Below are positions 12,241 through 33,065 of a DNA stretch of 36,758 bases, in pieces. The translations under genes were made by a program, and so were the position numbers. Position 1 is the stretch's first letter; each line of letters opens with the position of its first letter. The DNA lies in NCBI GenBank assembly GCA_030688685.1, contig JAUYJF010000002.1, positions 1 through 36,758 on the forward strand, given 5' to 3'. The notes beneath the pieces are model-generated. The model saw only the letters and a list, made by a program, of their open reading frames with translations. It was not told the origin of the DNA and searched no databases. Source of the DNA: Candidatus Yanofskybacteria bacterium (GTDB taxonomy: Bacteria > Patescibacteriota > Minisyncoccia > Minisyncoccales > UBA10102).

Positions 12241-12336
12241 TTCGCTTGGATCATGGCGGAGGCATTGAAAAAGTGAGGAAAGTGTGGTACGCATATCCTA
12301 GACACAGCGCTTATTTTGGGATTAGGAGGGTAGGGC

Positions 12337-12786
12337 ATGCTGGATCAAGTTGCTATGCCGGCGGAGGGTGCTGAATTTCCCCTAGGTTTCTGCGATAGTT
12401 CTTCTCCTCCTTTCCTGTTTGCCGGATTCAGTTCTCGTGGCTGGAGGTATGTCGGTCCCCCGCCATCGCAGAGGAGGGTAATTAAGGCGAAGCTTGTTCG
12501 CCTCGGCTCCGCGCGAGACCTCAGAGAGGCGAGGCAAATCGCCGACGAGATGGATTATTCCCTCGTGAGCGATCGGGCGCAAGAGCCCTTTACAGCCCTA
12601 TTTCCGCGTCCGGCACAAAAAGGGCTCGTGATCTTTGGCGGCTCTGAGTGGGAAAATGCACTCGGTCGGTTATTTGTGGTTTGTATCCGTGTCTCAGAGG
12701 GCGCATGGAACCTCTTCCTTCGTCCTTCTGACGAGCTCTTCGGTGAATTCTGCCTCTGGATGGCAGGAAAAAAAGAAGGAACATAA
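12337..12786 (+). CDS. Hypothetical protein in a stand-alone cassette
   Basis: AGGAGG at 12324-12329, upstream TTGAAA..TGTGGTA promoter-like sequence, downstream hairpin; no recognised motif. Confidence 0.65.
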   Translation: MLDQVAMPAEGAEFPLGFCDSSSPPFLFAGFSSRGWRYVGPPPSQRRVIKAKLVRLGSARDLREARQIADEMDYSLVSDRAQEPFTALFPRPAQKGLVIFGGSEWENALGRLFVVCIRVSEGAWNLFLRPSDELFGEFCLWMAGKKEGT

Positions 12787-12799
12787 ACTCTGACCAAAG

Positions 12800-12840
12800 A
12801 TTCCCTTGGTGAGCTTGCTCACCAAGGGGATTTTCTTTTT
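12800..12840 (+). terminator. Intrinsic terminator
   Basis: CCCTTGGTGAGC/GCTCACCAAGGG inverted repeat (12803-12828) followed by a T-rich tract. Confidence 0.8.
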
Positions 12841-12882
12841 CAGAGCTTCAAAAAGAGGCCGCAAAATGGTATGTGTTAAACA

Positions 12883-13935
12883 ATGGAGATACGGGAGGTT
12901 CCAAACAAAGAAGAATGGGAAGAGTTTCTCGCGGCGTGTAAGGAAAAGACCTTTTTGCAGTCATGGCAATGGGGAGAATTTCAAAACACGATGCGGGGAA
13001 AGGCATGGTATTTCGGAATATATGAAAGAAGCGTTCTTGTTGCCGCGGCTCTTTGTGTTCGGGTGCGGGCAAAGCGCGGATCTTTTCTTTTGTTTCCCCA
13101 TGGTCCTGTAGTCAAAATGCAAAATGCAAATCTCAAAGATCAAAATGACAATGTAAAATTCAAAATTCTTGAGACACTCCTTGAAAAACTCAGAGAAATT
13201 GCAAACAAGGAAGACGTGAACTTTATCCGCGTAAACCCCATATGGGAGCGCAATGAGGAGAACAGCCGTCTCTTTTCTGCTTTTGGATTCAGGAGGGCGC
13301 CTATCCAGATGCACCCTGAGGCCTCATGGAAATTGGATATCTCTCTTTCAGAAGAAGGGTTGCTCTCTGCAATGCGCAAGACAACCAGATACCTGATTCG
13401 CCAAACGCAAAAAAATGAAGATATCCAAATAAGGCAGAGCGCGGATCTCAAAGACGTGGAGGTATTCAGCAAACTCCACGAAAAAGTTTCCGCGCGTCAG
13501 AATTTCGTCCCATTTTCTCTTGAGTACCTCAAGAACGAATTTTCATCTTTTTCAAAAGATAGCAATATTTCCTTGTTTATTGGAACGGTCAAGGGGGAAA
13601 TCGCCGCCATGTCCTTTGTGGTGTTCTGGTCGGGTATCGGGTTTTATCATCATGCCGCGTCTCTTCCAGAGTACGCAAAGCTTTCCATTCCGTATCTGCT
13701 CCAATGGGAAGCGATCCGGGAAGCGAAAAGGAGAGGGTGCGCCCTGTATGATTTCTGGGGGTACGTGGATCCAAAAACCCATCCCAACCATGGCTGGGCC
13801 GGCCCTACGCTCTTTAAGATGGGATTTGGAGGCGCGGCCCATGAATATGTGCATACCCAGGATTTGCCTTTAACCTGGAAGTACTGGCCGACTGCTTTCT
13901 TTGAAGCATTCAGAAAAATGAAAAGGGGATTGTGA
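12883..13935 (+). CDS. FemAB/FemX-family peptidoglycan peptidyl transferase
   Basis: FLQSWQWGEF, PHGPV, MRKTTRYLIR, LLQWEAIREAK, YDFWG, FKMGFGG. Confidence 0.92.
   Translation: MEIREVPNKEEWEEFLAACKEKTFLQSWQWGEFQNTMRGKAWYFGIYERSVLVAAALCVRVRAKRGSFLLFPHGPVVKMQNANLKDQNDNVKFKILETLLEKLREIANKEDVNFIRVNPIWERNEENSRLFSAFGFRRAPIQMHPEASWKLDISLSEEGLLSAMRKTTRYLIRQTQKNEDIQIRQSADLKDVEVFSKLHEKVSARQNFVPFSLEYLKNEFSSFSKDSNISLFIGTVKGEIAAMSFVVFWSGIGFYHHAASLPEYAKLSIPYLLQWEAIREAKRRGCALYDFWGYVDPKTHPNHGWAGPTLFKMGFGGAAHEYVHTQDLPLTWKYWPTAFFEAFRKMKRGL
13113..13167 (+). repeat. Degenerate heptamer tandem repeat (CAAAATG-like) inside the femAB CDS
   Basis: CAAAATG CAAAATG CAAATCT CAAAGAT CAAAATG ACAATG TAAAATT CAAAATT. 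Confidence 0.8.
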
Positions 13936-13944
13936 TCCATACCC

Positions 13945-14781
13945 ATGAAAGGAAGTTATAGAAGCCCAAAACGCATACGCAAAAAAAAGAGCGCGGCCAG
14001 CAGATTCATGAAGATCGCGAGAAACCCTTTCGCGTGGGGAGGATTTCTTTTTGTTCTCTGCGGAGTTGGGGTCTGGTATGGGGCGGCTTTCTCTGAGGCG
14101 GCGCAGGTGAAGACTGTTACGGTGTCTGGGGCCGCGACGCTTAAGCAGGAGGAATTGGAGTCTGCTGCCTGGGCTCTTCTCCCTCGGCAGGTTTTATTTG
14201 GAAGAACGGCAAGTATTCTGCTGGTAGACACAGGCGCCGTGCAAGAGGGGATTCTGCGGTATGACCCGATTATCTCGGATGTTACGTTGCGGCGAAGCAT
14301 TTGGGGGCGCGCTCTGCGTTTTCATATTCAAGAAAGAACACAGGAAGCACGGTGGTGTCAGCAGGAATGCTACTCTGTAGACAAACAGGGTGTGGTATTC
14401 CGGGCAACAGCATCCCGCGAGGATCCTATATTGGTGGTTTCTGGAATTGAGCGCGCGGAACTTGGAGCAAGGATCCTTGAGGAGCAGGTCATGGCTCCTC
14501 TTTTGGCATTCTCTGATCTTCTTTCGCATTCTGCCATCTTCCAGACAGAGCTCATTTCCATTGAGTCGCTGGATCCTTCTCAAAGGGAAAAGGCGGTAGC
14601 TCGGAGTTCTGAGGGCTGGGATATTTTCTTTGACCTTGACTCTGACATTGATTGGCAAGCCTCAAAAGCGCTCGCGGTTTTAGAGCATAAAATATCAAAA
14701 GAAGAGCGAAGGCGTCTCCAATATATTGACGTACGGTTTGGCGATCAGGCCTATATGTACCCTGGGGACTTGACAAACTAG
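13945..14781 (+). CDS. ftsQ: Cell division protein FtsQ/DivIB-like
   Basis: Basic N-terminus, single TM, POTRA-like VTVSG segment, IQER..VDKQG, C-terminal YIDVRF. Confidence 0.8.
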   Translation: MKGSYRSPKRIRKKKSAASRFMKIARNPFAWGGFLFVLCGVGVWYGAAFSEAAQVKTVTVSGAATLKQEELESAAWALLPRQVLFGRTASILLVDTGAVQEGILRYDPIISDVTLRRSIWGRALRFHIQERTQEARWCQQECYSVDKQGVVFRATASREDPILVVSGIERAELGARILEEQVMAPLLAFSDLLSHSAIFQTELISIESLDPSQREKAVARSSEGWDIFFDLDSDIDWQASKALAVLEHKISKEERRRLQYIDVRFGDQAYMYPGDLTN

Positions 14782-14798
14782 CAAAAGTATTTTATAAT
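14770..14798 (+). promoter_or_regulatory. Consensus sigma70 promoter
   Basis: TTGACA-17 nt-TATAAT; the -35 lies inside the last codons of ftsQ. Confidence 0.8.
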
Positions 14799-14828
14799 GC
14801 ACCCAAGATTGCACAATAGGAGGAAGAG

Positions 14829-15248
14829 ATGCCTGAGAGCGCAGTAGACCTTTTCAAGCGGGCAGCCCTAGCGACTGAACAGGAAATCCAGGAGGTCAAG
14901 GGCCAGGAGGATCAGCTCCGGGCGAAGGTCCATAACCTGATCCTCGGGGCGATGGAGGCCGTTCGCCCCTTCATCATGAAGGGGCATATCCAAGACCTCG
15001 GATTCAGCAACCTCACCCTAAGCCCCACAAGAGGGCTACGGAGAAACAATCATGGTGCCTCACAGAAGGACATCCTCCGGAGCATGGGGATACAGGGTCA
15101 TCTGACCCTCCTGAAGGTCCTCCTCCAGTTGTTCAAGGGATATGTGGAGGTATCCAGGGAGAAGGTCACGGCCAGGAGGGCCGAAACAGAGCGGGTCAAG
15201 AACCAGATTGATGAGTTCGCTCGAGAACTCGAGCGACTCGCCAACTAG
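14829..15248 (+). CDS. Hypothetical coiled-coil protein in a stand-alone cassette
   Basis: AGGAGG 14818-14823, consensus promoter, helical N- and C-termini. Confidence 0.75.
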   Translation: MPESAVDLFKRAALATEQEIQEVKGQEDQLRAKVHNLILGAMEAVRPFIMKGHIQDLGFSNLTLSPTRGLRRNNHGASQKDILRSMGIQGHLTLLKVLLQLFKGYVEVSREKVTARRAETERVKNQIDEFARELERLAN

Positions 15249-15253
15249 CAAGG

Positions 15254-15289
15254 GTGCGGAGTGCGGGGCACACACCCCGCACTCCGCAC
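15254..15289. terminator. GC-rich hairpin between convergent genes
   Basis: 15-bp perfect stem GTGCGGAGTGCGGGG/CCCCGCACTCCGCAC, no U tract; a second hairpin lies at 15295-15318. Confidence 0.6.
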
Positions 15290-15314
15290 TCGCGATAACA
15301 CATTTACAGATGTG

Positions 15315-17078
15315 TTATTTTATTTCATAAAGCAAGATAGAGGTGCCGGCCTGGTCTACGGGTTCATGGGCCGAAAGCCAGCCATAGTACGTTGTGTCCT
15401 GGTCATATCCTGGGGCTTGCTTTGAAGATCCTCCCTTCAGCTCATTGAGAGAGATTGCGATCCATCCGCCTTCCTCTTGCGCTTCTTTGCACGTTCTCTG
15501 CTTTTCTTCTCTCTGGTCAGAGCAATTCATTTCAAGGTATTTTTCTCCCAGCCAGTAAGAAGGAGACTCGCCTCCAAAGTAGTGAAGCCGGAGTTTTTCA
15601 ATATTGTGCTCCTCAACTTTTTCCAGGAGGCGGTAGAAATCCTGCCCCCAGTCATAGTTGGAATCCACCGCAACCTCGTGTCCGCTCCGGGTCCCTCCCG
15701 CTGACTCATTGTAGAAGGAAATGAAATGGGGAAAGGCGCTCAGAGAAGAGAACGCGTACCAAGAAAAGAGAAGGGTGGCACCGCCAAAGAATAGTATTCG
15801 CGCGCGCATTCCCTCAAAGAATGGGAAGAGCCGGTTTCCTGCCCAGGCAATCAGCAGGTACGTAAAGGGGAGAACAGGAAGGATATGGCGTACCCCAATG
15901 TTCAGGTTTCCTGAAAGGGTAACTGCCCAGTAGATGGAGATAAAGATTACCGCCCCCCAAATGTCCAAAGGGATATTCCGTATCATGGAACGGAATCGCA
16001 GAAGCGCCAACAGGAGAAGCAGCAGGGTAAGGACGTGAAGAGCAAGAGGAATCTTGGTGAGGTACATGGTGGGGAAATACGAGAGTTTCCCGCCAGAGAA
16101 CACTTCCCCCATAAAGTACGTGGTGTTTCCAAAAGAGCTGCGCTGGCTCGCCATAAGCGCTCCTCTGGCGTATTGGGCAATGGGGCGCAGAAGCGGTTTG
16201 TCTGACATCCAGATTGCCGCTTGTTCTGAGGCGGTTATTTCTCCGGGAGAAAGATCTGCTATGGTGTCCCGCGTTTGGCGCTCTTGGGGATAATTCCAGA
16301 TATGGAACTGATACACCGGCCAGATCACGAGAAAGAGAGCAACGAAGCCTGCTGCCACAGAAAAAGATACGTATTTTGCTGTTTCGCGCCACTGGTTTGA
16401 GAGAAGTATATGGAGGATGGTAAGAATCCCCAGAGAAGGAATGAGAAGGATCATGCTGAATTTCAAGAGAAGAGCTATGCCCAAAGCAAATCCCGCCAGA
16501 AGAACATTCTTTGAAGTGGGGTTTTTCAAGAAAGACACCCAGGCAATGATCGCGAGGACAGCTCCCAGGGCCGCGGGAACATCCGTGGTGACCAGCCGCC
16601 CGTGAGCAAGAAGCGTGGGGGAGAAAGAAAAGAGAAAGAGAGCCGCAAGGGCTGCCTTGTCTCCGGCAATCTTGCGCGTCCAGCAAAAGAGCATCCATCC
16701 GCAGAGGAGAAGGAGCAGGATCATGGGAACTCGCGACCAGAAGATAATCTGTCTCGGGTCGTTCCCGGATTCATAGAGGAACTCGGTTCCCAGGTTGAAC
16801 TGCACCCACCAGGCGGGAGGGTCTTCCTGCTGCCACCATGGGCTTTCTGTTGGGAAGTTGAGATTAAGGAAGAGGAGGGGAAAAGCTGAAATATCTTTCG
16901 CGAGCGGAGGATGTTCAGGATTCACGCGGTAGTCCTGCTGGGTAAGGTACGAGTAGCCGGCCGGGATATGGGCGAGTTCATCAAAGGTAAGGGCGTCCTG
17001 TTTCATGCTCAAGAGCGCGAGAATCCCCATGATTCCCAAAAGCACTCCCGCTGTGATGGATGTCTTATTGAATTTCAT
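15315..17078 (-). CDS. GT-C fold glycosyltransferase (ArnT/PMT_2, GT39/GT83-like)
   Basis: TFDE..H, EHPPL, TTD, LLKFS, DSNYDWGQD, multiple TMs; start inferred at ATG 17078. Confidence 0.85.
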   Translation of the reverse strand: MKFNKTSITAGVLLGIMGILALLSMKQDALTFDELAHIPAGYSYLTQQDYRVNPEHPPLAKDISAFPLLFLNLNFPTESPWWQQEDPPAWWVQFNLGTEFLYESGNDPRQIIFWSRVPMILLLLLCGWMLFCWTRKIAGDKAALAALFLFSFSPTLLAHGRLVTTDVPAALGAVLAIIAWVSFLKNPTSKNVLLAGFALGIALLLKFSMILLIPSLGILTILHILLSNQWRETAKYVSFSVAAGFVALFLVIWPVYQFHIWNYPQERQTRDTIADLSPGEITASEQAAIWMSDKPLLRPIAQYARGALMASQRSSFGNTTYFMGEVFSGGKLSYFPTMYLTKIPLALHVLTLLLLLLALLRFRSMIRNIPLDIWGAVIFISIYWAVTLSGNLNIGVRHILPVLPFTYLLIAWAGNRLFPFFEGMRARILFFGGATLLFSWYAFSSLSAFPHFISFYNESAGGTRSGHEVAVDSNYDWGQDFYRLLEKVEEHNIEKLRLHYFGGESPSYWLGEKYLEMNCSDQREEKQRTCKEAQEEGGWIAISLNELKGGSSKQAPGYDQDTTYYGWLSAHEPVDQAGTSILLYEIK

Positions 17079-18654
17079 AGATCCAGATTCGTTCTCGTTC
17101 ATGGAGTATTCCATTGGGATACTGTTCTCGCGCAAGAGCAAGGAAACGTGCCTCTTTATTCATGGTAAAGAGAAGATCGCCTGGCATAAATACGGTTGTG
17201 GCAACTTCTTCCGGATGCAAGTAGATGGCTTCCTGCCGATTCTCGGTGTACTGAATGAATCTCGGGACCTCGCGGGGCAAATCTCCTTCTGACATAACCA
17301 CGTACTTTTGGATTTCTTTGGGATAGGAATTAAGTTCATGCCCCACATCCATAAAACGGAGGGTAAAGGACTCTTCCAGCTCAGGGCTTTGCTTCCATAG
17401 AATAAAATAGGAGTGAAAGGAGAGGAGTGTTGTTCCCAGAAGAACAAGGGAAATTGCTCCAGCTTGCATGTATTGCCCGCGGGGAAGCCGCAAAAGAAAC
17501 CGGAAGGAGATAAGCGCGCCAAACCCCGCCAAGAGATACAATGCGGGAATCATGCCAATAACCCGTAAAGCATGCGGGATACCCTCGGAGGTGAGAACTC
17601 CCGGGAGAAGCAAAAAGAAAAGCCAAGCAAGCACGAACGCACCAATAAGGAAGGCGCGGGACGCCTCACCCTGCATTCTGGTTTTCACCAGGACAGCAAA
17701 GGCTTTGATGGTGTTTGCCATAAACGCTCCCAATCCAATAAGGAAGAAAATGCCAACCACGGCCGGGAGCTGAGCCTGGCCCGCAACATTGTGGCGCCAA
17801 TTCTGGTCTCCCGCGATATTGAACATCGCAAGGTGTTTGAGGGTGCTTTCCCCAAGGGCCTTCAAAGGCTGTTCCTGCGCGAATACGGAAATACCGCTTG
17901 CCCGGAAGAGAAAGTCTTCGGGAGTATTCAAGAAGTGCCAAAGAATAGGGGATGCTGAGAGAAGCGCGAAGAGAGAAAACGCGCTTGCTTTGAAAAGGAA
18001 CTCCTTTCCCCAACGCTCTTTTATCGCGAGGATAAGCCAGAGAAGGAGGGCGAGGGCTACGGCGAGAGCGCCGAGCCGAAAACTGATATACGTGTGGAAT
18101 CCCAGTCCAAAGATGAGCCCCGCGAGAATAAAGTCTAGAATTTTCTTTGTGCGCATTCCCCGGAATAGGAAGTAGGAGGAGAACACAAGAACAAGAGGAA
18201 GAAGAATAGCCCGGAACCCTATTCTGCTGAACATAATATGCCATACGGAAACCGCGAGGAAGAATGAAGACAAGAGAGCGATCTTTGCGGCATGTATTCG
18301 CGTAGCGGCAATCTGTCCAAAGAGCTCGCGAGTAAGCAGGAACTGCCCCAGCACCGTAAGGATTCCTATGAGAGCGGGAACAATCTTAAAGGCCCAAACG
18401 CTGACGCCAAACAATCCAAACGCGAAGGAAATAAGGAGAAAGAAGAATCCCTCTCTTCCGTGATTCTCAGGATAAAACACCTGAAACTCTCCGGTTTGTA
18501 AAATCTCCACCGCCGTGGTGGCGTTAATGGCTTCATCCGGCCAAAGTCCGGGAGGAAGCGTGTCTAATTGCCAAAGACGAAAGAAGGACGCAAGCAGGAG
18601 AATACCCAGAAGAGCAAAGAGAACGCCCTTTGATTTCACCATGTTTGAAAGCAT
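17065..18654 (-). CDS. GT-C fold glycosyltransferase (ArnT/PMT_2-like)
   Basis: FRLWQL..PPGLWPDEA, SRIGFR, HTY, multiple TMs. Confidence 0.85.
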   Translation of the reverse strand: MLSNMVKSKGVLFALLGILLLASFFRLWQLDTLPPGLWPDEAINATTAVEILQTGEFQVFYPENHGREGFFFLLISFAFGLFGVSVWAFKIVPALIGILTVLGQFLLTRELFGQIAATRIHAAKIALLSSFFLAVSVWHIMFSRIGFRAILLPLVLVFSSYFLFRGMRTKKILDFILAGLIFGLGFHTYISFRLGALAVALALLLWLILAIKERWGKEFLFKASAFSLFALLSASPILWHFLNTPEDFLFRASGISVFAQEQPLKALGESTLKHLAMFNIAGDQNWRHNVAGQAQLPAVVGIFFLIGLGAFMANTIKAFAVLVKTRMQGEASRAFLIGAFVLAWLFFLLLPGVLTSEGIPHALRVIGMIPALYLLAGFGALISFRFLLRLPRGQYMQAGAISLVLLGTTLLSFHSYFILWKQSPELEESFTLRFMDVGHELNSYPKEIQKYVVMSEGDLPREVPRFIQYTENRQEAIYLHPEEVATTVFMPGDLLFTMNKEARFLALAREQYPNGILHERERIWIYEIQ

Positions 18655-18732
18655 TCCAGAATTGTACCAGATTATTTTGCAAGTTTCTAATTAGCTTTTT
18701 GGTTTCCCCTCATATCTCTGTAACAAGAAACA

Positions 18733-18760
18733 TTGACAAAATAGTTTTATAATGTATAAT
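18733..18760 (+). promoter_or_regulatory. Sigma70 promoter
   Basis: TTGACA-16 nt-TATAAT. Confidence 0.7.
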
Positions 18761-18789
18761 ACATTTAGAGTTTGCCAGGAGTAGTAGAA

Positions 18790-19128
18790 GTGAAAAAGCT
18801 CTTTGTTTCTGTAGTGATCGCGACCCTGGTCGCGGCAACGATGATAGGCAGGGTGCCTCCTGTAGATACTCGTGATGGGTCTGTCAACTTCTCGTATTAC
18901 CTTATTGAGGTGAAACGGGGGGAGACAGAGGGAGAAATACTGGTAAGCATGCCTCCGGGTGTGCATATCAGTGGATCTGCGGGGTTTTCTTCCGTGGCAG
19001 CTGGACTAGCAATCTTGCCAATCAAGGCTGACACTGGGGTACTTTGGTTACATGCCCCTAAGGGCATGGAATTTCAACCGGGCGTGTTTCCAAGTACTAC
19101 GCAGTATGCCATGCAGCAACTCAGATAG
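18790..19128 (+). CDS. Hypothetical secreted or membrane-anchored protein in a stand-alone cassette
   Basis: AGGAG 18777-18781 then GTG start; signal-peptide-like MKKLFVSVVIATLVAA. Confidence 0.65.
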   Translation: MKKLFVSVVIATLVAATMIGRVPPVDTRDGSVNFSYYLIEVKRGETEGEILVSMPPGVHISGSAGFSSVAAGLAILPIKADTGVLWLHAPKGMEFQPGVFPSTTQYAMQQLR

Positions 19129-19135
19129 AGAAAAG

Positions 19136-19164
19136 GGGCGAGGGAGATATGAACTCCCTCGCCC
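19136..19164. terminator. Hairpin, probable terminator
   Basis: GGGCGAGGGAG/CTCCCTCGCCC 11-bp stem just after the stop. Confidence 0.65.
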
Positions 19165-19173
19165 TGAACAGTA

Positions 19174-19200
19174 TTAGCAGTCAACCCCATTGACTGCTAG
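19174..19200 (+). promoter_or_regulatory. CIRCE operator (variant) overlapping the hrcA -35
   Basis: TTAGCAGTC-N9-GACTGCTAG versus consensus TTAGCACTC-N9-GAGTGCTAA; directly upstream of hrcA. Confidence 0.9.
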
Positions 19201-19224
19201 TTTTTTTATGGTAGCATAGTCTTA

Positions 19225-24547: not shown

Positions 24548-24584
24548 TGAAAGGGCCTATGACTTTGTATCATAAGCCCTTTCA
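24548..24584 (-). terminator. Hairpin, probable terminator of the minus-strand GreA-domain gene
   Basis: TGAAAGGGC.TATGA/TCATA.GCCCTTTCA imperfect inverted repeat. Confidence 0.6.
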
Positions 24585-24595: not shown

Positions 24596-24859
24596 TTATT
24601 CCGGCATCCACTCAACTACCTCCCTGACTCCGACTATTCTGCTTTTTCCATTTGGGAGGGTGAAGCTAACAATGTCACCCACCTTTTTCCCGCGAAGCGC
24701 CTTTCCCAGAGGGGATTGGTCGCTAATGCGGAAGACTCCATCATAGCTCCCGTCATTGACCATCACATAGCTGTCCTCCCTTTCTGTGGTCATGTCCACT
24801 ATTCTGAATTTCGTTCCAGGACCGATTGGAATCTTCAGGATCTTTGCGGCATTTCCCAT
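24596..24859 (-). CDS. GreA/GreB C-terminal-domain-only protein
   Basis: ISDQSPLGKALRGKKVGDIV..LPNG; AAGGAG SD (24865-24870); TTGTCC-17-TATGAT promoter upstream. Confidence 0.8.
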   Translation of the reverse strand: MGNAAKILKIPIGPGTKFRIVDMTTEREDSYVMVNDGSYDGVFRISDQSPLGKALRGKKVGDIVSFTLPNGKSRIVGVREVVEWMPE

Positions 24860-25011
24860 TACTTCTCCTTTCTTTCTGGGCATGTAGCAAGATGCCAATT
24901 TATCATATGAGAAAATGAAGAAAAGGACAAGACGAGCGCAAGAGTTGACATTTTGTTGATACTGTGGTAAATATACTTTGGTACTTATCTTAGAAAGAAT
25001 CGGAGGGAGAA

Positions 25012-25437
25012 ATGGAACTAATCCATTTTGTCGCGCAGTATTGGTGTGCTGTATGTTCTCGCCTCATTGGCGGGTACATACAGAGCACAATCCCGTTTGT
25101 AGTCAAGAACGCAGAGACGGACGGGGAGCGCAAAATCAGCTTCGGGGAGAGCAGTTTTATTTCCTTGAATACCTATTGCAAAGGTTGCGCATCTCTTCCG
25201 CCTTCGCGGGCGGTTGTGGTGTCATCAAGCTGCAAAGTTTGCAGTAAGGATACCACTTTCTCAGTGATTGATTCTCCTCTTATGCGGGTGCCTGAGGGAG
25301 AAGAGATACGAGTCCATGCTTCACAAAGATTGTTTCATGTATCTGCGATGTCTTGGTGTTCTCAGGAATGCCTTGACAAGCAGAGAGGAGACACAGAGAT
25401 TGAGGTACGGGACATGAATCCTTTACCTCCTCTGTGA
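25012..25437 (+). CDS. Hypothetical Cys-rich putative zinc-binding protein
   Basis: CAVC, CKGC, CKVC, CSQEC; GGAGG SD at 25002-25006; TTGACA at 24945. Confidence 0.7.
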   Translation: MELIHFVAQYWCAVCSRLIGGYIQSTIPFVVKNAETDGERKISFGESSFISLNTYCKGCASLPPSRAVVVSSSCKVCSKDTTFSVIDSPLMRVPEGEEIRVHASQRLFHVSAMSWCSQECLDKQRGDTEIEVRDMNPLPPL

Positions 25438-25452
25438 GAAGTATACTCAAAT

Positions 25453-25488
25453 AAAGTCGGTGGCTGAAAAGCTGCCGACTTTCCCTTT
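25453..25488 (+). terminator. Intrinsic terminator
   Basis: AAAGTCGGTGGC/GCTGCCGACTTT stem followed by pyrimidine tract. Confidence 0.7.
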
Positions 25489-25528: not shown

Positions 25529-26737
25529 ATGAGTACTGGCCAGAGAGGATCCTCTCTTTTCTTTATTGTAGGGGCCATAATCTTCGCATTTAGCGTTGGG
25601 TTCTTGGTGGGGGGAGGATTACAAAAAGAACAGTATGTCGCGGGACTCGTAAACATTGAACAAGGCAAACCTGGAGCGGTGGATTTTTCCATGTTCTGGG
25701 ATGCGTGGCGTGTTCTCCAGGAAAAGTACGCGGACGCGGATTCTCTGGATCTCCAGGCCATGGTACACGGTGCGATTTCCGGCATGGTGAAAAGCGTTGG
25801 GGATCCCTACACGGTGTTTATGGACCCAAAAGACACCAGGAAGTTCATGGAGGACATCGAAGGAACCTTTGAAGGCGTGGGGATGGAGATTGGCATACGG
25901 GACGGACTCTTGAAAGTGATCGCTCCCTTGGAACAAACTCCCGCCCAGAGAGCGGGTCTCAGGGCAGGGGACGCAATCTACGAGATTGACGGGGCAACCA
26001 CAAGGGATATGACCGTGGACAAAGCGGTCTCCTTGATCCGGGGCCCAAAAGGCTCTACCGTCACCTTTACGGTTTTCCGGGACGGATGGAGCGACACCCG
26101 GGAATTCACGATTGAGCGTGGCGTGATTGAGGTGCCTTCGCTCCGCTGGGAACTCAAAGAGGGAAATGTGGCATATGTGCGCCTGTTCCACTTTTCCAAG
26201 AAAGCATCCGCGGATTTTCGGAAAGCGGCCTCTGAAATCCTTGCTTCCTCGGCTGACCGTATTGTTCTGGATCTCAGAAATAACCCGGGAGGATATCTGG
26301 AAGTTTCTCAGGAGATCGCGGGATGGTTCTTGGAGCCGGGAGCTCTCGTGACGATTGAAGATTTCGGATCCCAAGAGAAAAAGAGGGAATACCGGGCCCA
26401 GGGAAACGGAAGATTGGCATCCTACCCCATTGTCGTGCTCATGAACGAGGGATCAGCTTCTGCTTCTGAGATTTTGGCAGGGGCTCTCCGCGACAATAGG
26501 GGAGCTCTCCTCATTGGAACGCAATCTTTTGGAAAAGGGTCAGTACAGGAGCTGGACCGTCTTCGGAACGGAGCCTCCTTGAAGGTGACGGTCGCAAACT
26601 GGCTTACTCCCAACGGGCACCATATTACGGGAATAGGGCTGGAGCCGGATATTCAGCTCAACCTAACCGCGGAGGATTTTGAGAAGAATCTTGACCCCCA
26701 GCTTGACAAGGCACTTGAAGTTGTAAAAGATGTATGA
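25529..26737 (+). CDS. ctpA: S41 family C-terminal processing protease
   Basis: DPYT, PDZ (GVGMEI), DLRNNPGG, SASASE, FGKGSVQ, DPQL. Confidence 0.93.
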   Translation: MSTGQRGSSLFFIVGAIIFAFSVGFLVGGGLQKEQYVAGLVNIEQGKPGAVDFSMFWDAWRVLQEKYADADSLDLQAMVHGAISGMVKSVGDPYTVFMDPKDTRKFMEDIEGTFEGVGMEIGIRDGLLKVIAPLEQTPAQRAGLRAGDAIYEIDGATTRDMTVDKAVSLIRGPKGSTVTFTVFRDGWSDTREFTIERGVIEVPSLRWELKEGNVAYVRLFHFSKKASADFRKAASEILASSADRIVLDLRNNPGGYLEVSQEIAGWFLEPGALVTIEDFGSQEKKREYRAQGNGRLASYPIVVLMNEGSASASEILAGALRDNRGALLIGTQSFGKGSVQELDRLRNGASLKVTVANWLTPNGHHITGIGLEPDIQLNLTAEDFEKNLDPQLDKALEVVKDV

Positions 26738-26767
26738 GAATATAGGTGCTAGATTGCGGAATACATT

Positions 26768-27214
26768 ATGAAAGTCATTCTTTTAAAGGACGTACAAAAT
26801 ATAGGCAAGCGTTTTGACATTAAGGAGGTGGCGGACGGACACGCGCGCAATTTTCTGATTCCCGAGGGTTTGGCCCGCCAGGCAACCAAGGACGCGGTCA
26901 AATGGGTGGAAGCGCAGAAGGAGCTTCTTACCAAACGAGCCGAGCAGGATCTCCAGAAATCCCAGGAAGTCGCTTCCCAGCTGGATGATCTTGAAGTTGT
27001 TCTCGCCGTGAAAGTGGGGGAGGAGGGACAATTATTTGAATCTATCACTGCCCAGAAGATCTCAGACCGTCTTCGGGAAATGAGCATTGACATAAAGAGG
27101 CACCAGATCAGATTGGATGCTCCAATCAAGGAAATTGGAGAATTCCCGGTCAAAGTGTCTCTGGACCACAACCTGGAAGCAACCATACGAGTAATCATCA
27201 GCGAGGCGGAGTAA
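26768..27214 (+). CDS. rplI: 50S ribosomal protein L9
   Basis: MKVILLKDV, VADGHARNFLIP, PIKEIG. Confidence 0.96.
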   Translation: MKVILLKDVQNIGKRFDIKEVADGHARNFLIPEGLARQATKDAVKWVEAQKELLTKRAEQDLQKSQEVASQLDDLEVVLAVKVGEEGQLFESITAQKISDRLREMSIDIKRHQIRLDAPIKEIGEFPVKVSLDHNLEATIRVIISEAE

Positions 27215-27246
27215 TTCTCCGTCTCTTGTTTATCCATTACGAAACA

Positions 27247-28893
27247 ATGACACGGTACATCTTTGTCGCGGGCGGAGTTATTTCTGGAGTAGGAAAGGGG
27301 GTGGCAACAGCTTCCATCGGCAAGATTCTCCAGAGCAAGGGATTTCAGGTTTCCGCCATGAAGATTGACCCGTATGTGAACGTGGACGCGGGAACTCTCA
27401 ACCCGTTAGAGCATGGAGAAGTATTTGTTACCAATGACGGAACGGAGTGCGACCAAGACGTCGGCAATTACGAGCGGTTCCTGAATCAGGATTTCAGCAC
27501 CGCGAATTATCTGACAACCGGCCGTGTATACCAGTCGGTTATTGCCAAAGAGCGCAATCTTGAGTACGGCGGCAAAACCGTGGAGGTTGGCCTCCATATC
27601 CCAGAGGAAGTCATCTCGCGCCTTCAGCTGGTCGCAGAGCATGATCACGCGGATTTTGTGCTGGTGGAAGTGGGAGGCACGGTGGGAGACTACCAGAACG
27701 TGCTGTTTCTGGAAGCGGCTCGTCTTTTAAAGCGGAGAATACAGGAGAATGTGCTCTTTGTGCTGGTTACCTATCTCCCGGTTCCCGGAAACCTGGGGGA
27801 AATGAAGACCAAACCCACCCAGCACGCGGTGCGCGCCCTGAATGCCGCCGGTATTCAGCCAGATTTCATCCTGGCGCGTTCAGCTTTTCTCGTGGATGAG
27901 CCCAGAAAGCGCAAGATTTCAGATTTTTGCAACGTAGATCCCCAAGACGTTATTTCCGCTCCTGACGTGGAATCTATTTATGAGATCCCGGTGAATCTGG
28001 AGGAGGAAGATTTGGGGAATCGCATTCTTGAGAAGTTCCACATCAAGCCCCGGGAAAAAGACCTCGCGGACTGGAGAAAGCTCGTGGAGGTTATTGGCAA
28101 GAAAGGGAAACCGGAAGTGCGGATTGGAATTGTGGGGAAATACTTTGAGATCGGGGACTTTACGCTCATGGATTCCTATCTCTCCGTCATTGAGGCTTGC
28201 AAGGCGGCTGCCTGGCGGTTTTCTTCAGAGCCAAAGATCACCTGGCTGTCCGCTGAACAATACGAGAAGAATCCCGAGCAGGTTCAGGAACTTGAACAAT
28301 ATGATGGTGTTATCGTGCCGGGAGGATTTGGCACCAGGGGAGTTGAAGGAAAAATCAAGGCGATTGAATACTGCCGCACCCGCCAGATTCCTTATTTTGG
28401 GTTGTGCCTTGGTCTTCAGCTTGCCATCATTGAATTTGCGAGAAACGTGTGCGGCGTCAAAGACGCCACTTCCCGTGAGTTTGACGCGGATGCCGAGAAT
28501 CCCGTTATTGATGTGATGGAAGAGCAGAAAGCGCTTCTTGCCGAAAAAAAATACGGAGCAACCATGCGCTTGGGAGCGTATGAAGCTGAACTCAAAAAAG
28601 ACACCATTGCGTATGGCGCCTATAAGACAACAAAGATTTCAGAGAGGCACAGGCACAGGTATGAGGTAGAGAATTCATACCGCGATCTTTTAGAGCAGCA
28701 CGGTTTTGTGATCTCAGGGGTAAACCCTCAGAGGAATCTCGTGGAAATTGGAGAACTTTCCAATCACCCATTTTTCCTGGGAACGCAGTTTCATCCGGAG
28801 CTTACATCCCGACCTCTTCAACCCCATCCGCTCTTTCTGGCTTTTCTGGAGGCCGCCATTAAGCGACGCGAGAAACAGGGTCAACGTGGATAA
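27247..28893 (+). CDS. pyrG: CTP synthase
   Basis: [44 protein letters not shown]. Confidence 0.97.
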
Positions 28894-29149
28894 TCTTGAG
28901 AATACGCTGCCTGTTGTTGAAATTCCGCTTGCGTTTTGTAGAGAATCGGACAACGCCATCGCGCAAGGCAAATAAGGTGTTGTCTCCGCCCTCTTTCACA
29001 TTGGATCCCGCGGCAAATTGAGTTCCCCGCTGGCGAATGAGAACCTGTCCAACTTTTGCCCTCTGGCCCGCGAACAGCTTAACTCCCAGATATTTTGGCT
29101 CAGAATCCCGCGCGTTCCTACTTGTACCTGCAGCTTTTGTTGTTGACAT
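28859..29149 (-). CDS. rpmA: 50S ribosomal protein L27
   Basis: [30 protein letters not shown]; start at ATG 29149. Confidence 0.93.
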
Positions 29150-29157
29150 ACGAAAAT

Positions 29158-29186
29158 ATGGTAGCAAAACTCACGGAATTTGTCAA
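29158..29186 (-). promoter_or_regulatory. Promoter for rpmA, located inside the divergent ORF
   Basis: Minus strand TTGACA-17 nt-TACCAT with extended TG, 8 nt before the rpmA ATG. Confidence 0.65.
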
Positions 29187-29316
29187 AATACACAAAAGGG
29201 ATATCCTTCTCGGGTTGCTCGTGCTCTTGCTTTCTCTGCTGTCTTTTGGCATAGGATATCTGAAGGCCCGCGAGGACTTCAGACAGCCTCTTATTATTGA
29301 ACTGCCCCATGACTAA
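29158..29316 (+). CDS. Small single-TM hypothetical protein (52 aa)
   Basis: One TM ending SFGIGYL; stop overlaps the NUDIX start. Confidence 0.65.
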
Positions 29317-29821
29317 GAAATTCGCGTTCTTTCAGGTTTCCCTTAAAATTCTTCTTAAGAAAAAGAACGGAAAGGTGCTTTTGCTCAGGGCCAGAAAGGG
29401 GGACATTGATCTTCCCGGCGGGCGTATTGACTCTGGAGAAGAGAAGAAGTCCCTGGAAGAGATCGTGAAAAGAGAAGTCCAGGAAGAGCTTGGGGGAGAT
29501 ATCGTATTCAAGCTGGGACGGCCGCTGTTCCAGTACCGCATCTATATGCATCGGACAAAGACGTATGAATTTGTCGTGGTGTATGAGGCGCAGCATCTGG
29601 AAGGGAAGATTACGCTTTCTGAGGAGCACAAAGAATACCTTTGGATCCATCCCCGCGCGCTTACCCTCCTTCCGGCTGATTTTCGCGTCCAGGATCAGGA
29701 AAAGAGCGGAGCATTTCGCGCGTACTTTGATACTTGGAGGAGCTTGCGTTCTTTGCCAAACCCAGGAAGAGAAAAGACGCCTCCTACGCTTGCGCCTTTC
29801 CCCGTGCATGAGAAAGCTTGA
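29309..29821 (+). CDS. NUDIX hydrolase
   Basis: LPGGRIDSGE..REVQEELG Nudix box; LSEEH..Y.W. Confidence 0.9.
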   Translation: MTKKFAFFQVSLKILLKKKNGKVLLLRARKGDIDLPGGRIDSGEEKKSLEEIVKREVQEELGGDIVFKLGRPLFQYRIYMHRTKTYEFVVVYEAQHLEGKITLSEEHKEYLWIHPRALTLLPADFRVQDQEKSGAFRAYFDTWRSLRSLPNPGREKTPPTLAPFPVHEKA

Positions 29822-30191
29822 TCGTCCCATCCTTCTCACAGGATCTATCGTTCAAGGGAGGGGAAGCGGGATGCGGTTTCCCACTGCTACCCTTCAAACG
29901 GATACAGAACTTCCAGAACCCGGAGTGTATGTGTCTCGCGTGATCCTGCGCGACCGGGCAGAATGGTATGAAGGGGCAACGTCCGTAGGGGTTGCCTCCA
30001 CGGTGGGGGCGGTGAATCCTACGGTGGAAACGCATCTCTTTGATTTTACGGGAAATCTTGTGGGGGATCATGTGGAACTTGAGCTCCTCAGCTTTATTCG
30101 CCCAATGGAAACCTTTCGTTCCATGCGGGATATGGAGGAGGAGATTGAAAGGGATATCACGCTTGCGCGTGATTTCTTTCGTTCTGCCTAG
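29808..30191 (+). CDS. Monofunctional riboflavin kinase-like protein
   Basis: G.IVQG.G.G, FPTAT, GVY, VETHLFDF, FIRP..F; no adenylyltransferase domain. Confidence 0.85.
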   Translation: MRKLDRPILLTGSIVQGRGSGMRFPTATLQTDTELPEPGVYVSRVILRDRAEWYEGATSVGVASTVGAVNPTVETHLFDFTGNLVGDHVELELLSFIRPMETFRSMRDMEEEIERDITLARDFFRSA

Positions 30192-30236
30192 CGGAAGACG
30201 GGAATCCCGCCCCCTTAAGAGTCTTCGCGTCCAATT

Positions 30237-30542
30237 ATGGATCCGGTTCATGTCACGAAAAAAGAGATGAGCGGAGCAGAAGCTGTATGGGAGTTTGTGG
30301 TAGCTGTTGGCAGAGAAGACACCGATCTGATAGGATTTCTGGTATACTTGGAGAAAGCGTATTGGCAAGAGCTGACAAACGGGCTTCGTTCCCCAGAGGA
30401 GCTGGTAAAGAGCTCCTTTGAGTTTCTTCTCAAAAAAGAATCCAAATATCTGATTCTTCGTGAGTTTGATCTGCGGGATATCCAGGGCTTTTTCCCTGAG
30501 TATGAAGAGGAAATGAAGAAAATGTTGCATGTGCCTTCCTAA
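30237..30542 (+). CDS. Hypothetical protein
   Basis: Fills the gap on the operon strand; globular composition. Confidence 0.7.
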   Translation: MDPVHVTKKEMSGAEAVWEFVVAVGREDTDLIGFLVYLEKAYWQELTNGLRSPEELVKSSFEFLLKKESKYLILREFDLRDIQGFFPEYEEEMKKMLHVPS

Positions 30543-30575
30543 AAGGAACAAGGTCGCGCGAGAACAATAAACAAG

Positions 30576-30631
30576 TGATAATTGACAGTTGACGCGTACA
30601 CATAAAGTCAAAAGTCACCTGTCACAATTCA
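30576..30631. repeat. Inverted heptamer-periodic repeat
   Basis: TGATAAT TGACAGT TGACGCG facing AAAGTCA AAAGTCA CCTGTCA CAATTCA. Confidence 0.55.
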
Positions 30632-30647
30632 TTCGTCATCCAAAAAT

Positions 30648-30920
30648 ATGGCAGAACACGTTGTAAAAAAAGACGGAACCAAGGAACCCTTTGATGCGGC
30701 AAAGATTCGGCAGGCGATTACGCTCGCGGCTCAAGAGGCGGGAAAAGAAATAGATCAGCGGCTTATTGATAGGGTGACCCAGCCCGCCTTGAACTTCGCG
30801 GAAGACCGCCAAGAGGTGGCAACCAAGGAGTTGCGGGAGATTCTGTTGTCTGAGCTTGAAAAAGAAGCTCCGGAGATTGCGGCTGCTTGGCGGGCGCACG
30901 ACCAGAAAAAGGGGAAGTAG
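30648..30920 (+). CDS. Stand-alone ATP-cone domain protein
   Basis: VVKKDGTKEPFDAAKIRQAI..A, V.T.ELRE. Confidence 0.88.
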   Translation: MAEHVVKKDGTKEPFDAAKIRQAITLAAQEAGKEIDQRLIDRVTQPALNFAEDRQEVATKELREILLSELEKEAPEIAAAWRAHDQKKGK

Positions 30921-30934
30921 ACAAAGCGAGTTTT

Positions 30935-30973
30935 AAGAACAAGATGGTCCCGCGCCGTCTTGTTCTTTTTTTT
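30935..30973 (+). terminator. Intrinsic terminator
   Basis: AAGAACAAGATGG/CCGTCTTGTTCTT stem plus poly-T. Confidence 0.8.
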
Positions 30974-31042
30974 GTCATATTCTGGTCAAAGAAAGCGTCG
31001 CTATTAGTAGAAAGGTCTCAGGCGAGGATCCTCCATCTTCGT

Positions 31043-31138
31043 ATGCCCAAGAACATATTCACGCTTCTCTTCATTACGATTGTGCTCGCGGTGATTGCTG
31101 GAGTTGTGTTTGTGGTAACACGCCCCGGAATGGGGTGA
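31043..31138 (+). CDS. Small single-TM protein (31 aa)
   Basis: MPKNIFTLLFITIVLAVIAGVVFVVTRPGMG; CGTATG start context as in lysS and rpmA; ends 4 nt before the next ATG. Confidence 0.5.
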   Translation: MPKNIFTLLFITIVLAVIAGVVFVVTRPGMG

Positions 31139-31142
31139 ATGT

Positions 31143-31730
31143 ATGAATGCGTATCTGAATGAAATAAAGCCGTACCTGGGGCTCGCGTTCCTCGTGTTCG
31201 CGGGAGCTTCCGCGTTCGGGTACGTTCTTGCCTTCCTGGATCCTACAGAAACCCTTCATGTCCAGAGGGGAGTATATGAGCAGGCGCGTCCCTTGCTTGA
31301 TCTGCAGAGCTGGCAGATCGCCCTCCTGATTTTCCTGAACAACAGCATCAAGGTCTTTTTCTCCATGGCGCTGGGGCTGGTGTTCGCGTTTGTTCCCATT
31401 CTGTTCCTCTTTGTAAACGGCCAGCTTCTCGGAACCTTCGCGTTTCTCGTGCAGGACAGCCTCGGATGGGGCTTTTTTACCACAGGCATCATTCCGCATG
31501 GAATCATAGAAATTCCGGCGGTTCTTGTTGGCGCAGCTTTCGGGATCCGATTAGGGTTCCTCGCTTTTTCTAAGCTCTTTGGGCCAAAGAGCGAGATAAG
31601 TCTCAAGCAAGAAATAAAGCGCGCCGTCTCCTTCTATCTGCGGGTTCTTCTTCCGGTCTTTTTCCTTGCCGCGCTTGTTGAGGCATATATTTCCCCGTTT
31701 TTTCTCGCGTTATTTTACTCCGTCCTATGA
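31143..31730 (+). CDS. SpoIIM/DUF95-family membrane protein
   Basis: IFLNN, VNG, PHGIIEIPA, AALVEAYISP. Confidence 0.88.
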   Translation: MNAYLNEIKPYLGLAFLVFAGASAFGYVLAFLDPTETLHVQRGVYEQARPLLDLQSWQIALLIFLNNSIKVFFSMALGLVFAFVPILFLFVNGQLLGTFAFLVQDSLGWGFFTTGIIPHGIIEIPAVLVGAAFGIRLGFLAFSKLFGPKSEISLKQEIKRAVSFYLRVLLPVFFLAALVEAYISPFFLALFYSVL

Positions 31731-32164
31731 AGTTGAAAAAAATCTATTCCAAAGATCTGGGGATTGATCTGGAATCCAGAAAGGAGCGGGAAGCATTCAA
31801 ATGGCTTGTTGCCTGTTTTTTATTCGGCAATCCGATCTCTCAGGAGATTGCGGCCCAGGCGTGGGGCGAACTTGAGCAGGAAGGCCTCATGAGCCCGGAC
31901 GCGCTCCTCAAGGCGGGATGGGAACGGATCGTGAGGGCGCTGGATCGGGGCAAATACGGCAGATATGACGAGTCTACCGCGACCCGGCTTCTTGATGCCG
32001 CGGATCTCCTGAAAAAGAAGTACCAGGGAAGCATGCTGGTGTTTTTTCAGAGAGTAGGGAGGACAAATCTGGTGGACAAACTGCAAGAAGAATTCAAGGG
32101 CATCGGCCCCATTTCTTCCCGTATCTTCATGAGGGATATGGAGAAGTGGTTTTTTTCAGAATAA
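31727..32164 (+). CDS. Putative helix-hairpin-helix (HhH-GPD-like) DNA-binding protein
   Basis: FKW..ACFLFG.PI, Y.RYDE..A, FKGIGP HhH-like motif. Confidence 0.6.
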   Translation: MKLKKIYSKDLGIDLESRKEREAFKWLVACFLFGNPISQEIAAQAWGELEQEGLMSPDALLKAGWERIVRALDRGKYGRYDESTATRLLDAADLLKKKYQGSMLVFFQRVGRTNLVDKLQEEFKGIGPISSRIFMRDMEKWFFSE

Positions 32165-32213
32165 GAGAATGGTATAATAAGCATGAGAGTTGCTATCTCA
32201 GAGGAGGAGTTGC

Positions 32214-33014
32214 ATGAAGCGGTTTGCTCTCGGTTTCATCTTGCCTCCTGTTGGACCAATCGCGGGAGTGGTAGCGGGAATTGCGGGCGTGCTGGCGTAT
32301 CTGGCCTATCGGGCGGAAGCGTGGCGAGAGTTCTGGGCCATCGTGGGATCGGCGATTTTTCTCTTCATGTTCCTTGCGATCATGGGGGGAGCGATCTTTG
32401 CCAGGCGGCACCCGGAACAGGAACCTGAAATCCAGCTTCCAGACTATCTTTCAGCGCAGAGTCGGGCTGTACTGAGCGCCGCCGTTGACCGGGCGCAAGG
32501 ACAGCACGCGGGACATCTTGGTCAGCCTGTTCTCCTGTCCGTATTCTCCCGACAGGATGCAACCGTGCGGAGCGTCCTGAACCTGTTGGGAGCGACAGAC
32601 CCTGTCATAAAGGATGCGGAAGGGGACTTTGCGAAGAGGAACATCGTTCCCTTGTTTGTTGACCGCGCGCAGCTCATCCAGTCAGGGCAACACCTTCTGG
32701 AAGCCGCAAAAAGGAGGTACGCGGATCGGGTAGGATCCGAACAAGTGGAGCCTGTGCATATCCTTTTGGCAATGACGGAGGGAAGGGAGAATGTCCTGGC
32801 GCCCTATACTCCAGAAGACGTGGAGTTTGCCATGGAGGCACGGATCCTGACCGTTTCTGAGTTAGAGCAAAAGCGCGCCCAACTTGAACAGGAAGAACGG
32901 GAACTGCGTGAAAAGCTCGCGGTAACCGGAAGGAGGCTGGATATCGTGAATCGGGGGATTCGGCTTCAGCCGAATGGGGTTATCCACAGCGTACTCGCAC
33001 CTCCTCCGTACTAA
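32214..33014 (+). CDS. Membrane protein with Clp N-terminal-like repeats and a C-terminal coiled coil
   Basis: Two TMs; LSAQSRAVLSAA..A and EQVEPVHILLAM Clp_N-like motifs; AGGAGG 32202-32207; TGGTATAAT 32170-32178. Confidence 0.65.
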   Translation: MKRFALGFILPPVGPIAGVVAGIAGVLAYLAYRAEAWREFWAIVGSAIFLFMFLAIMGGAIFARRHPEQEPEIQLPDYLSAQSRAVLSAAVDRAQGQHAGHLGQPVLLSVFSRQDATVRSVLNLLGATDPVIKDAEGDFAKRNIVPLFVDRAQLIQSGQHLLEAAKRRYADRVGSEQVEPVHILLAMTEGRENVLAPYTPEDVEFAMEARILTVSELEQKRAQLEQEERELREKLAVTGRRLDIVNRGIRLQPNGVIHSVLAPPPY

Positions 33015-33030
33015 TACGGAGGAGAACATA

Positions 33031-33065
33031 AAAAGAGCGTCTTCGCGTGCCGAGGGCGCTCTTTT
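33031..33065 (+). terminator. Intrinsic terminator, possibly bidirectional
   Basis: AAAAGAGCGTCTTCG/CGAGGGCGCTCTTTT. Confidence 0.7.

Follow-up and report, generated by a model that had tools for sequence, protein, structure and literature searches.

Shine-Dalgarno-led single-gene cassettes in a patescibacterial lineage whose 16S rRNA lacks the anti-Shine-Dalgarno sequence

Phage morons are autonomous units of promoter, ribosome-binding site (RBS), open-reading frame (ORF), and terminator that are swapped between conserved genes, and integron gene cassettes are single-gene units with variable cargo. Here, these and other described systems are compared with six single-gene cassettes in a 36,758-nucleotide stretch of DNA (contig JAUYJF010000002.1; hereafter, the window), which are named by their start positions (12337, 14829, 18790, 24859, 25012, and 32214) and are each led by a Shine-Dalgarno (SD) motif in a genome whose only detected 16S rRNA ends without an anti-Shine-Dalgarno (aSD) motif. 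Like morons, and like T4-type PeSL cassettes (PMC2839356), the units have their own RBS and terminator and, with varying firmness, their own promoter, lie between conserved genes, and are absent from relatives; they differ in being chromosomal in a cellular parasite, in having no common ends and no phage homologues found, and in an RBS mismatched to the resident ribosome. They resemble integron cassettes as single-gene units with variable cargo, but here there is no attC-like repeat and no array, the units have their own promoters, and the sites are dispersed.

Loss of the aSD has been published for a subgroup of Parcubacteria (Tsurumaki et al. 2022, PMC9297842). The source genome is like these in its 16S rRNA without CCUCCU, in a bS21 that was not found, and in a four-domain bS1; the available part of that paper concludes that no SD helices form, and a retained SD-led class was not found described there. 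Bacteroidia with SD-blind ribosomes (rpsU; available parts of PMC7797042 and PMC13000453) are also alike in their mostly SD-less starts with a minority of strong SDs, but they keep the aSD and sequester it with bS21; a switch of this type cannot operate in the source genome, because its aSD is deleted and no bS21 was found. One cassette protein, that of ORF 12337, is a variable-protein homologue of clade 2 of the diversity-generating retroelements (DGRs), a clade restricted to Patescibacteria according to the available parts of two papers (Roux et al. 2021, PMC8144416; Wu et al. 2018, PMC5758913). It is like the proteins described there in having homologous variable genes within elements of variable protein (VP), template repeat (TR), Avd, and reverse transcriptase (RT) with adenine-biased mismatches, and in a C-type-lectin-like model with no transmembrane segment; it differs in having no TR or RT nearby and no match to a TR of its own genome, and it explains one of the six cassettes only. 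The contrast in SD and GC content between the variable gene and RT/Avd that is reported below was not found in these parts. The loss of the aSD, DGR clade 2, and moron-like units are already known; for a maintained SD-led class in aSD-less cells, we found no description in the literature searched, supplements lying outside the search. An SD that persists across an order whose ribosomes have lost its partner presents a clean paradox of translation start.

The SD-led gene class and the ribosome of the source genome

The source genome (G000; 694 kb in 48 contigs, the window being contig C36; other G and L designations are comparison genomes and loci) is Patescibacteria-like and Paceibacteria-like by its intron-bearing 16S gene, its gene content, and a Nealsonbacteria match with the same gene order. 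A preliminary description of the window had reported six ORFs with SDs and 3′ hairpins amid SD-less core genes, all of which were found as claimed; the eight core genes named there (greA, lysS, serS, grpE, dnaK, dnaJ, rplI, and rpmA) and five more have no SD (0/13). It had further proposed a recurrent class of insulated SD-led accessory genes, and this is borne out genome-wide. Genes were called blind to upstream sequence in G000, G032, and 497 kb of G003, and conserved and lineage-specific genes were defined by matches in two genomes of the same family, G032 and G003. Among 726 genes of G000, AGGAG/GGAGG peaks at positions −12 to −10 (17, 23, and 14 occurrences vs a background of 2.2 per position); the peak is present in G032 and G003 too, and the pattern is the same in G021. 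A strict SD stands before 37 of 285 unmatched genes and 3 of 55 with a weak match, whereas conserved genes have one in 6 of 386 cases (odds ratio 9.4, p = 2e-9), and for proteins of up to 250 aa, the counts are 31/203 without match vs 3/202 conserved; conserved and lineage-specific genes thus differ in SD frequency. The contrast is conservative, since some core genes missing from G032 and G003 are counted as unmatched and four of the six starts in the window escape the caller. Counting an SD at any early start was rejected as uninformative, with 76 of 386 conserved genes scoring.

Proteins of the SD class are short, with a median of 138 aa, and its GC content is slightly raised (0.535 vs 0.50); leaderless-like starts number 0/37 vs 53/377, 3′ hairpins 29/37 vs 120/377, and a T at −1, typical of the genes of this cell, 7/37 vs 191/386. 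The leaderless look is that of an extended −10 ending 6–11 nt before the ATG, found in 31 of 123 conserved genes with an upstream gap of at least 60 nt and peaking at 6 nt. From 20 fetched stretches, 57 SD-led genes were chosen, of which 39 have no Pfam family, and the 18 that do are accessory enzymes, regulators, Fic, PIN, YcaO, DUF397, and an IS110 transposase. The source genome also holds an SD-led nitroreductase and YcaO pair (C17:158-2640), possibly a unit that modifies ribosomally synthesized and post-translationally modified peptides, and an SD-led IS110-family transposase (C33:3436-4599). SD-led genes resembling pyrF, pyrE, pyrD, dapA, asd, purC, and purE, named by eye from their N-termini, occur in G032 (L101, L108, L109, and L134); these are partial pathways, reminiscent of phage auxiliary metabolic genes.

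The only 16S rRNA detected in the source genome, one locus in the 48-contig assembly, has a U-rich tail after helix 45 with no CCUCC. The aSD is missing in all 16 readable 16S ends of 29 relative loci (12 have no 3′ end and one is mis-anchored) and, of 24 rows from genomes of the family and order, in all 20 that hold a true 16S end (the other four are not 16S). No second 16S with an aSD was found in the 48 contigs of G000 or in the one contig of G032 (671.5 kb), which has one 16S and no GGATCACCTCC. The missing aSD sharpens the earlier suggestion of a different translation mode. SD leaders pair with a canonical tail at −12.4 kcal/mol and with their own tails at −4.1 kcal/mol (16 genomes). A displacement of the aSD into the spacer was considered and rejected, CCTCC within 800 nt downstream being sporadic and in no conserved place. 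In G000, the 16S 3′ end (C46:3900-3945, minus strand) is more eroded than those of relatives, helix 45 mispairing and GGAUCA also being gone, and the gene is interrupted near position 530 by an insert of some 700 nt.

Junctions, the variable-protein family, and purC

The cassette junctions are hot spots with exchangeable cargo, empty or otherwise filled in relatives, and the flanks of the cassettes are core genes. In family loci, degT and femAB, which ORF 12337 separates here, are at most 45 nt apart in 16 of 21, about 110 nt apart in two, and parted by other cargo in three; ftsQ adjoins pmt1 in 8/8, and the pmt-hrcA gap is short in 5/8, with other SD-led cargo seen by eye before hrcA in G002, G008, G016, and G028. 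The dnaJ-ctpA interval, which holds 24859 and 25012 here, contains SD-led purC, purE, and asd in G032, and purC with a second SD-led gene in G021. None of the six cassette proteins matches any of the compared relatives' junction loci, and within the family, the ORFs lack synteny. In a run possibly from the same sample (X1), separate contigs cover 11500-21558 and 24037-31400, so the junctions in those spans are not artefacts of the source assembly; no reads skipping a cassette, as from an empty site, were found among the 15 of 49 joints listed. The G021 gene at the degT-femAB site was rejected as an orthologue of ORF 12337 (pairwise E 0.06, different subfamilies). A femAB promoter motif (window 12845-12882; L062, L066) is common to G000, G021, and G002 only, which are the genomes with large degT-femAB cargo.

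The notion that all six cassettes form one mobile system with one acquisition mechanism, put forward in the preliminary description, is not supported. The six are unrelated and have no common end sequence, and no shared ends, attC-like repeats, terminal repeats, or target duplications were found among them, although old duplications may have decayed; no transposase lies within the cassette units and no integron integrase was found in the window, the span searched for one. Elsewhere in the source genome, a hairpin element whose arms are CCTCCC/GGGAGG occurs twice between SD-led orphans (C10:11320-12656), and the element is present in G032 and G003 too.

Four of the cassette proteins had been described as unrecognized; 14829, 18790, and 25012 are still orphans (the search of the full protein set covered 18790 alone among these), while ORF 12337 belongs to an unnamed family of DGR variable proteins with 3697 clusters at 50% identity. 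It matches the family profile at E 1.7e-26, the profile including ORF 12337 itself, and is 35–39% identical to five subfamily members. Its structural model (predicted local distance difference test score 87.6) has a best match at a middling Z of 6.9 (root-mean-square deviation 3.8, 102 aligned), and nearly all 50 rows of structural matches are C-type-lectin-fold chains, including Mtd; searching PDB sequences with the profile of the family gave nothing significant. Template repeats with adenine-biased mismatches follow family genes in 5 of 25 loci tested, including one on C10 of G000, and RT is present in many loci. Mismatches between variable repeat and TR fall at TR adenines in 18/25, 18/24, 20/27, and 19/25 cases in relatives and in 19/44 in the C10 copy. 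The subfamily member L325 lies within a complete VP-TR-Avd-RT element, and ORF 12337 scores 72 against the TR of L325 compared to 37 and 27 against the two TRs of its own, fragmented assembly; with no TR or RT nearby and no match to either own TR, ORF 12337 is orphaned. In the source genome, an SD-led variable gene with a TR lies at C10:1-1074 (minus strand) and a second TR with Avd and RT at C14:30671-32133; two DGR elements may exist there, since the C14 repeat fits the 3′ end of the variable gene better.

For this family, the top 30 loci per search were fetched, and starts were chosen by a rule blind to the SD. In members from the order, an SD (looser motif set) stands at the first in-frame ATG in 24/29, compared to 5/66 internal ATGs, three of 32 loci having been dropped (one with an open 5′ end, two with no upstream ATG); by hand count, 17 of 19 are in genomes with a directly read aSD-less 16S end. 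The frequency in aSD-bearing genomes is 11/16, so that in aSD-less genomes it is no lower. Three sister pairs (G094/G113, G004/G109, and G079/G062) keep SD and spacer, although their four-fold sites are only 33–37% identical, near saturation. The best match of 25 of 27 order members lies within the order, and ORF 12337 falls in a well-supported clade of order members and one unplaced protein. The RT and Avd genes of the same DGRs are without an SD (0/14 each) and are AT-rich (GC 0.27–0.46), while the variable gene has one at the first ATG in 7/14, or 9/14 with the second; these counts exclude the RT and Avd of G000, whose RT carries a weak GAGGT, and the choice of Avd starts was rough. GC content of the variable gene is 0.50–0.62 in 12 of 13 listed and 0.42 in one, and most are GC-rich outside the variable repeat. 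Since RT and Avd are SD-less and AT-rich, import of a whole foreign element does not explain the SD.

The SD-led purC gene between dnaJ and ctpA in G032 and G021, which belong to two aSD-less genera, keeps its SD in both, and the two copies are as diverged as their core neighbors (62% aa identity and four-fold 0.38 vs 58–78% and 0.27–0.35). Across the order, 10 of 16 purC loci have an SD before some in-frame ATG, including copies with a low GC content at third codon positions (GC3, 0.29–0.36); the 16S ends of five purC-bearing genomes were not picked out, and their aSD state is assumed from the order. In two aSD-bearing Patescibacteria (60 kb each), conserved genes with an SD number 0/19 and 0/16 and others 5/37 and 2/39, and the two-class grammar is therefore phylum-wide and not tied to the aSD.

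Candidate readers of the SD

Judging from these comparisons, the SD is probably maintained inside the aSD-less lineages and not merely carried in. The six ORFs are stand-alone accessory genes, unrelated to one another, that belong to a second class found genome-wide, and their SD sites are likely kept by selection because the messages would be translated by a ribosome still bearing the aSD, most likely the host's. Another ribosome may well read these genes, since the cell's own 16S cannot pair well with them and housekeeping genes have no SD; that it is a foreign one, the host cell's being the best guess, we infer only tentatively. Given selection within the lineage, the SD, its spacing, the lack of leaderless starts, the lack of T at −1, and the GC-rich third positions, which the SD class shows regardless of the genome it resides in, are better matched by a second translation system than by a factor of the cell's own. 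New cassettes would settle between operons, because there the terminator and the downstream extended −10 keep the leaderless core gene expressed. Messenger RNA or cassette DNA might be passed across the contact between episymbiont and host, with a relaxase-less type IV secretion system (T4SS) as a candidate route; G000 has a VirB4/TraG-like ATPase split across contig ends (C1:272-742 and C39:16288-16455), and the available part of PMC12102498 describes T4SSs as widespread in the phylum, mostly relaxase-less, and of unknown cargo.

If host ribosomes read the SD, this would explain the role of the ubiquitous relaxase-less T4SS and of the DGR targets of Patescibacteria that have no membrane anchor, and would allow host-directed genes to be filtered out of thousands of genomes by a single motif. 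A bolder and more speculative form of this proposal is that there are two gene sets for two ribosomes, a leaderless, SD-less core and a quickly swapped, GC-rich, SD-led set delivered to the host as mRNA or DNA. The second set would comprise hypervariable DGR lectin-fold proteins, decoy domains (GreA-C and Clp_N), and enzymes of nucleotide and amino-acid biosynthesis, which the host would translate like phage early or auxiliary metabolic genes; were this so, the SD would be a tag listing host-manipulation genes and the cargo of the relaxase-less T4SS.

Several observations weigh against translation by the host. To our knowledge, no bacterium is known to export mRNA to a host that is itself bacterial, and the ordinary cytoplasmic enzymes and the IS110 transposase in the SD class could act in the cell's own cytoplasm. 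The U-rich tail of G000 pairs with some SDs by wobble, and some aSD-less family members (G014, G131, G159, and L326) have weakened SDs. The purC evidence is a single pair at a proven hot spot, and independent insertion at the same site does happen, since two subfamilies occupy the degT-femAB site in G000 and G021. The compared genomes are related and are not independent samples. Outside the order-only clades, the variable-protein tree intermixes aSD-less and aSD-bearing members, and because of this, and since only the top 30 loci were fetched per search, recent import from unsampled donors may have taken place. The family genes are unameliorated, with GC3 far over flank GC, as recent arrivals would show, and RT and Avd may be without an SD simply through weak expression.

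Ranking close behind the host-ribosome reading is passive carriage from a phylum-wide mobile pool, itself a doubtful but live explanation, in which the SD is selected only in Patescibacteria that keep the aSD, and aSD-less lineages keep importing the cassettes, translate them weakly with no use of the SD, and lose them before the motif decays. The variable-protein family is indeed found in 74 of 401 phylum genomes, is patchy with a different junction at each occurrence, and has the intermixed tree, the unameliorated genes, and the lack of T at −1 just mentioned; the aSD, moreover, is kept in 21/21 16S ends from other classes and 2/8 from the same class. Such carriage does not account for an SD frequency that is not reduced in aSD-less genomes (24/29 vs 11/16), for order-only clades with long branches, that of ORF 12337 among them, or for the SD-less, AT-rich RT and Avd of the same elements. 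The GC excess is alike in aSD-less and aSD-bearing residents (in the latter, flank 0.43 and GC3 0.67), and aSD-bearing residents are therefore not the compositional source; the syntenic purC pair and the SD-led low-GC3 purC copies also tell against carriage. If carriage is nonetheless correct, the SD class measures the turnover rate of the accessory pool across the phylum.

It is rather unlikely that the cell's own machinery reads the motif, whether by a trans-acting RNA or protein, by bS1, by wobble with the U-rich 16S tail, or through a leader hairpin containing the GGAG strand. SD-class enzymes are plausibly useful inside the cell, a bS1 with four S1 domains is present in G000, and the mean pairing energy of the G000 tail is −5.5 kcal/mol for SD-class leaders and −2.0 for the rest, the C10 gene reaching −10.7. 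However, tails vary over the order and those of G094, G041, G109, G079, and G113 cannot pair (−0.6 to −2.8) while the SD is unchanged, and neither CsrA nor bS21 was found in G000. GGAG is often paired in predicted folds, but not significantly beyond leader shuffles (mean unpaired 0.35 vs 0.42, p = 0.08), and by eye, no obvious conserved single-stranded CCUCC RNA was seen among 365 non-coding matches. The fixed spacing of 6–8 nt (30/37 SD-class genes) is ribosome-like, and the GC-rich third positions are left unexplained by a reader of this kind.

Recent, moron-like transfer from non-candidate-phyla-radiation (non-CPR) bacteria, or from their phages, with the SD as a relic, is improbable. The autonomous promoter-SD-terminator anatomy and GC-rich composition would suit such a donor, some class members look foreign (DUF397, IS110, and YcaO), and the variable-protein family has a member in 1 of 151 genomes of another phylum. 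For ORF 12337, this origin is already disfavored, its family being Patescibacteria-centered (clade 2 in the available part of PMC8144416); searches for PHROG, phage, plasmid, and IMG/VR relatives came up empty, neither 18790 nor 32214 has a homologue among 5.8 billion proteins, and by its features, 32214 most resembles Patescibacteria clusters. That the ORFs were simply picked for having an SD is refuted, since, although 4.1% of internal ATGs (84/2028) have a strict SD by chance and the promoter-like sites are near chance as a set, the positional peak is SD-blind, the enrichment is 9-fold and alike in G032, G003, and G021, and the variable-protein count used a fixed first-ATG rule.

Anatomy of the six cassettes and neighboring features

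All six cassettes have a 3′ hairpin (−21.8 to −38.9 kcal/mol) that starts at most 15 nt past the stop. The promoters ascribed to each of them are firm for 14829 and 18790 (12/12) and fair for 24859 (9/12) and 32214; those of 12337 and 25012, which the scanner did not list, are doubtful; as a set, promoter-like sites in 12000-26000 number 16 vs 11.1 ± 3.1 expected, barely beyond chance. ORF 12337 (12337..12786, plus strand, as are all but 24859) encodes the orphaned DGR family member of 149 aa with a predicted C-type-lectin-like fold; it is led by AGGAGG (12324..12329) 7 nt before the ATG and by a weak promoter-like site, TTGAAA-17-TACGCA (12265..12293), and is followed by a terminator-like hairpin (12797..12834) and then the extended −10 of leaderless femAB. 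ORF 14829 (14829..15248), a 139-aa orphan with GC3 0.73 and no Pfam family, has a consensus sigma-70 promoter (14770..14798) whose −35 (14770-14775) lies, as had been noticed, within the 3′ end of ftsQ, which ends at 14781; AGGAGG (14818..14823) stands 5 nt before the ATG, and the 3′ hairpin (15254..15289) is the one at −38.9 kcal/mol. ORF 18790 (18790..19128), a 112-aa orphan with a hydrophobic, signal-peptide-like N-terminus by eye, has a consensus sigma-70 promoter (18733..18760), AGGAG (18777..18781) 8 nt before a GTG, and a 3′ hairpin (19136..19164) that abuts the CIRCE-like operator of hrcA, also as described before; it found only itself among 5.8 billion proteins.

On the minus strand, 24859 (24596..24859) encodes a stand-alone GreA/GreB C-terminal domain of 87 aa, with a promoter-like site (24902..24930), AAGGAG (24865..24870) 5 nt before the ATG, and a terminator-like hairpin (24548..24584). 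Its description as a detached GreA-C domain holds, and this lone domain has no match at E ≤ 1e-9 in 250 order genomes; by eye, a second, full-length greA-like gene lies at C37:8449-9000 of G000. ORF 25012 (25012..25437) encodes a 141-aa orphan with three CxxC motifs and no Pfam family; by eye, a promoter-like site with an imperfect −10, TTGACA-17-TAAATA, lies at 24945..24973, GGAGG (25002..25006) stands 5 nt before the ATG, and a 3′ hairpin with a pyrimidine tail follows (25453..25482). No viral relatives were found for 12337, 14829, 18790, or 25012, the four proteins searched for in viral contigs.

ORF 32214 (32214..33014) encodes a 266-aa protein with a hydrophobic N-terminus, a Clp_N-like repeat domain, and a coiled-coil-like end. 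The Clp_N assignment made earlier falls under the Pfam cut-off (E 0.0013) but is backed by predicted-structure look-alikes, the nearest being stand-alone Clp_N proteins; in sequence, the protein found only itself among the 5.8 billion. An extended −10, TG-TATAAT, was seen by eye at 32170..32178, beyond the scanned range, AGGAGG (32202..32207) lies 6 nt before the ATG, and a 3′ hairpin with a U-rich tail ends the cassette (33031..33065). An out-of-frame ATG at 32183 (frame 32183-32428) stands 4 nt after this extended −10 and could serve as a leaderless start competing with the SD-led start of 32214.

The operator before leaderless hrcA (19174-19200) is a CIRCE variant with GTC/GAC where the CIRCE consensus has CTC/GAG, and it is kept in most family loci (L071-L094). 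Right after tRNA-Lys(TTT), at 23546-24466, lies a gene with helix-turn-helix and LAGLIDADG-like features, low in GC and with no SD, which is a seventh insert in the dnaJ-ctpA hot spot.

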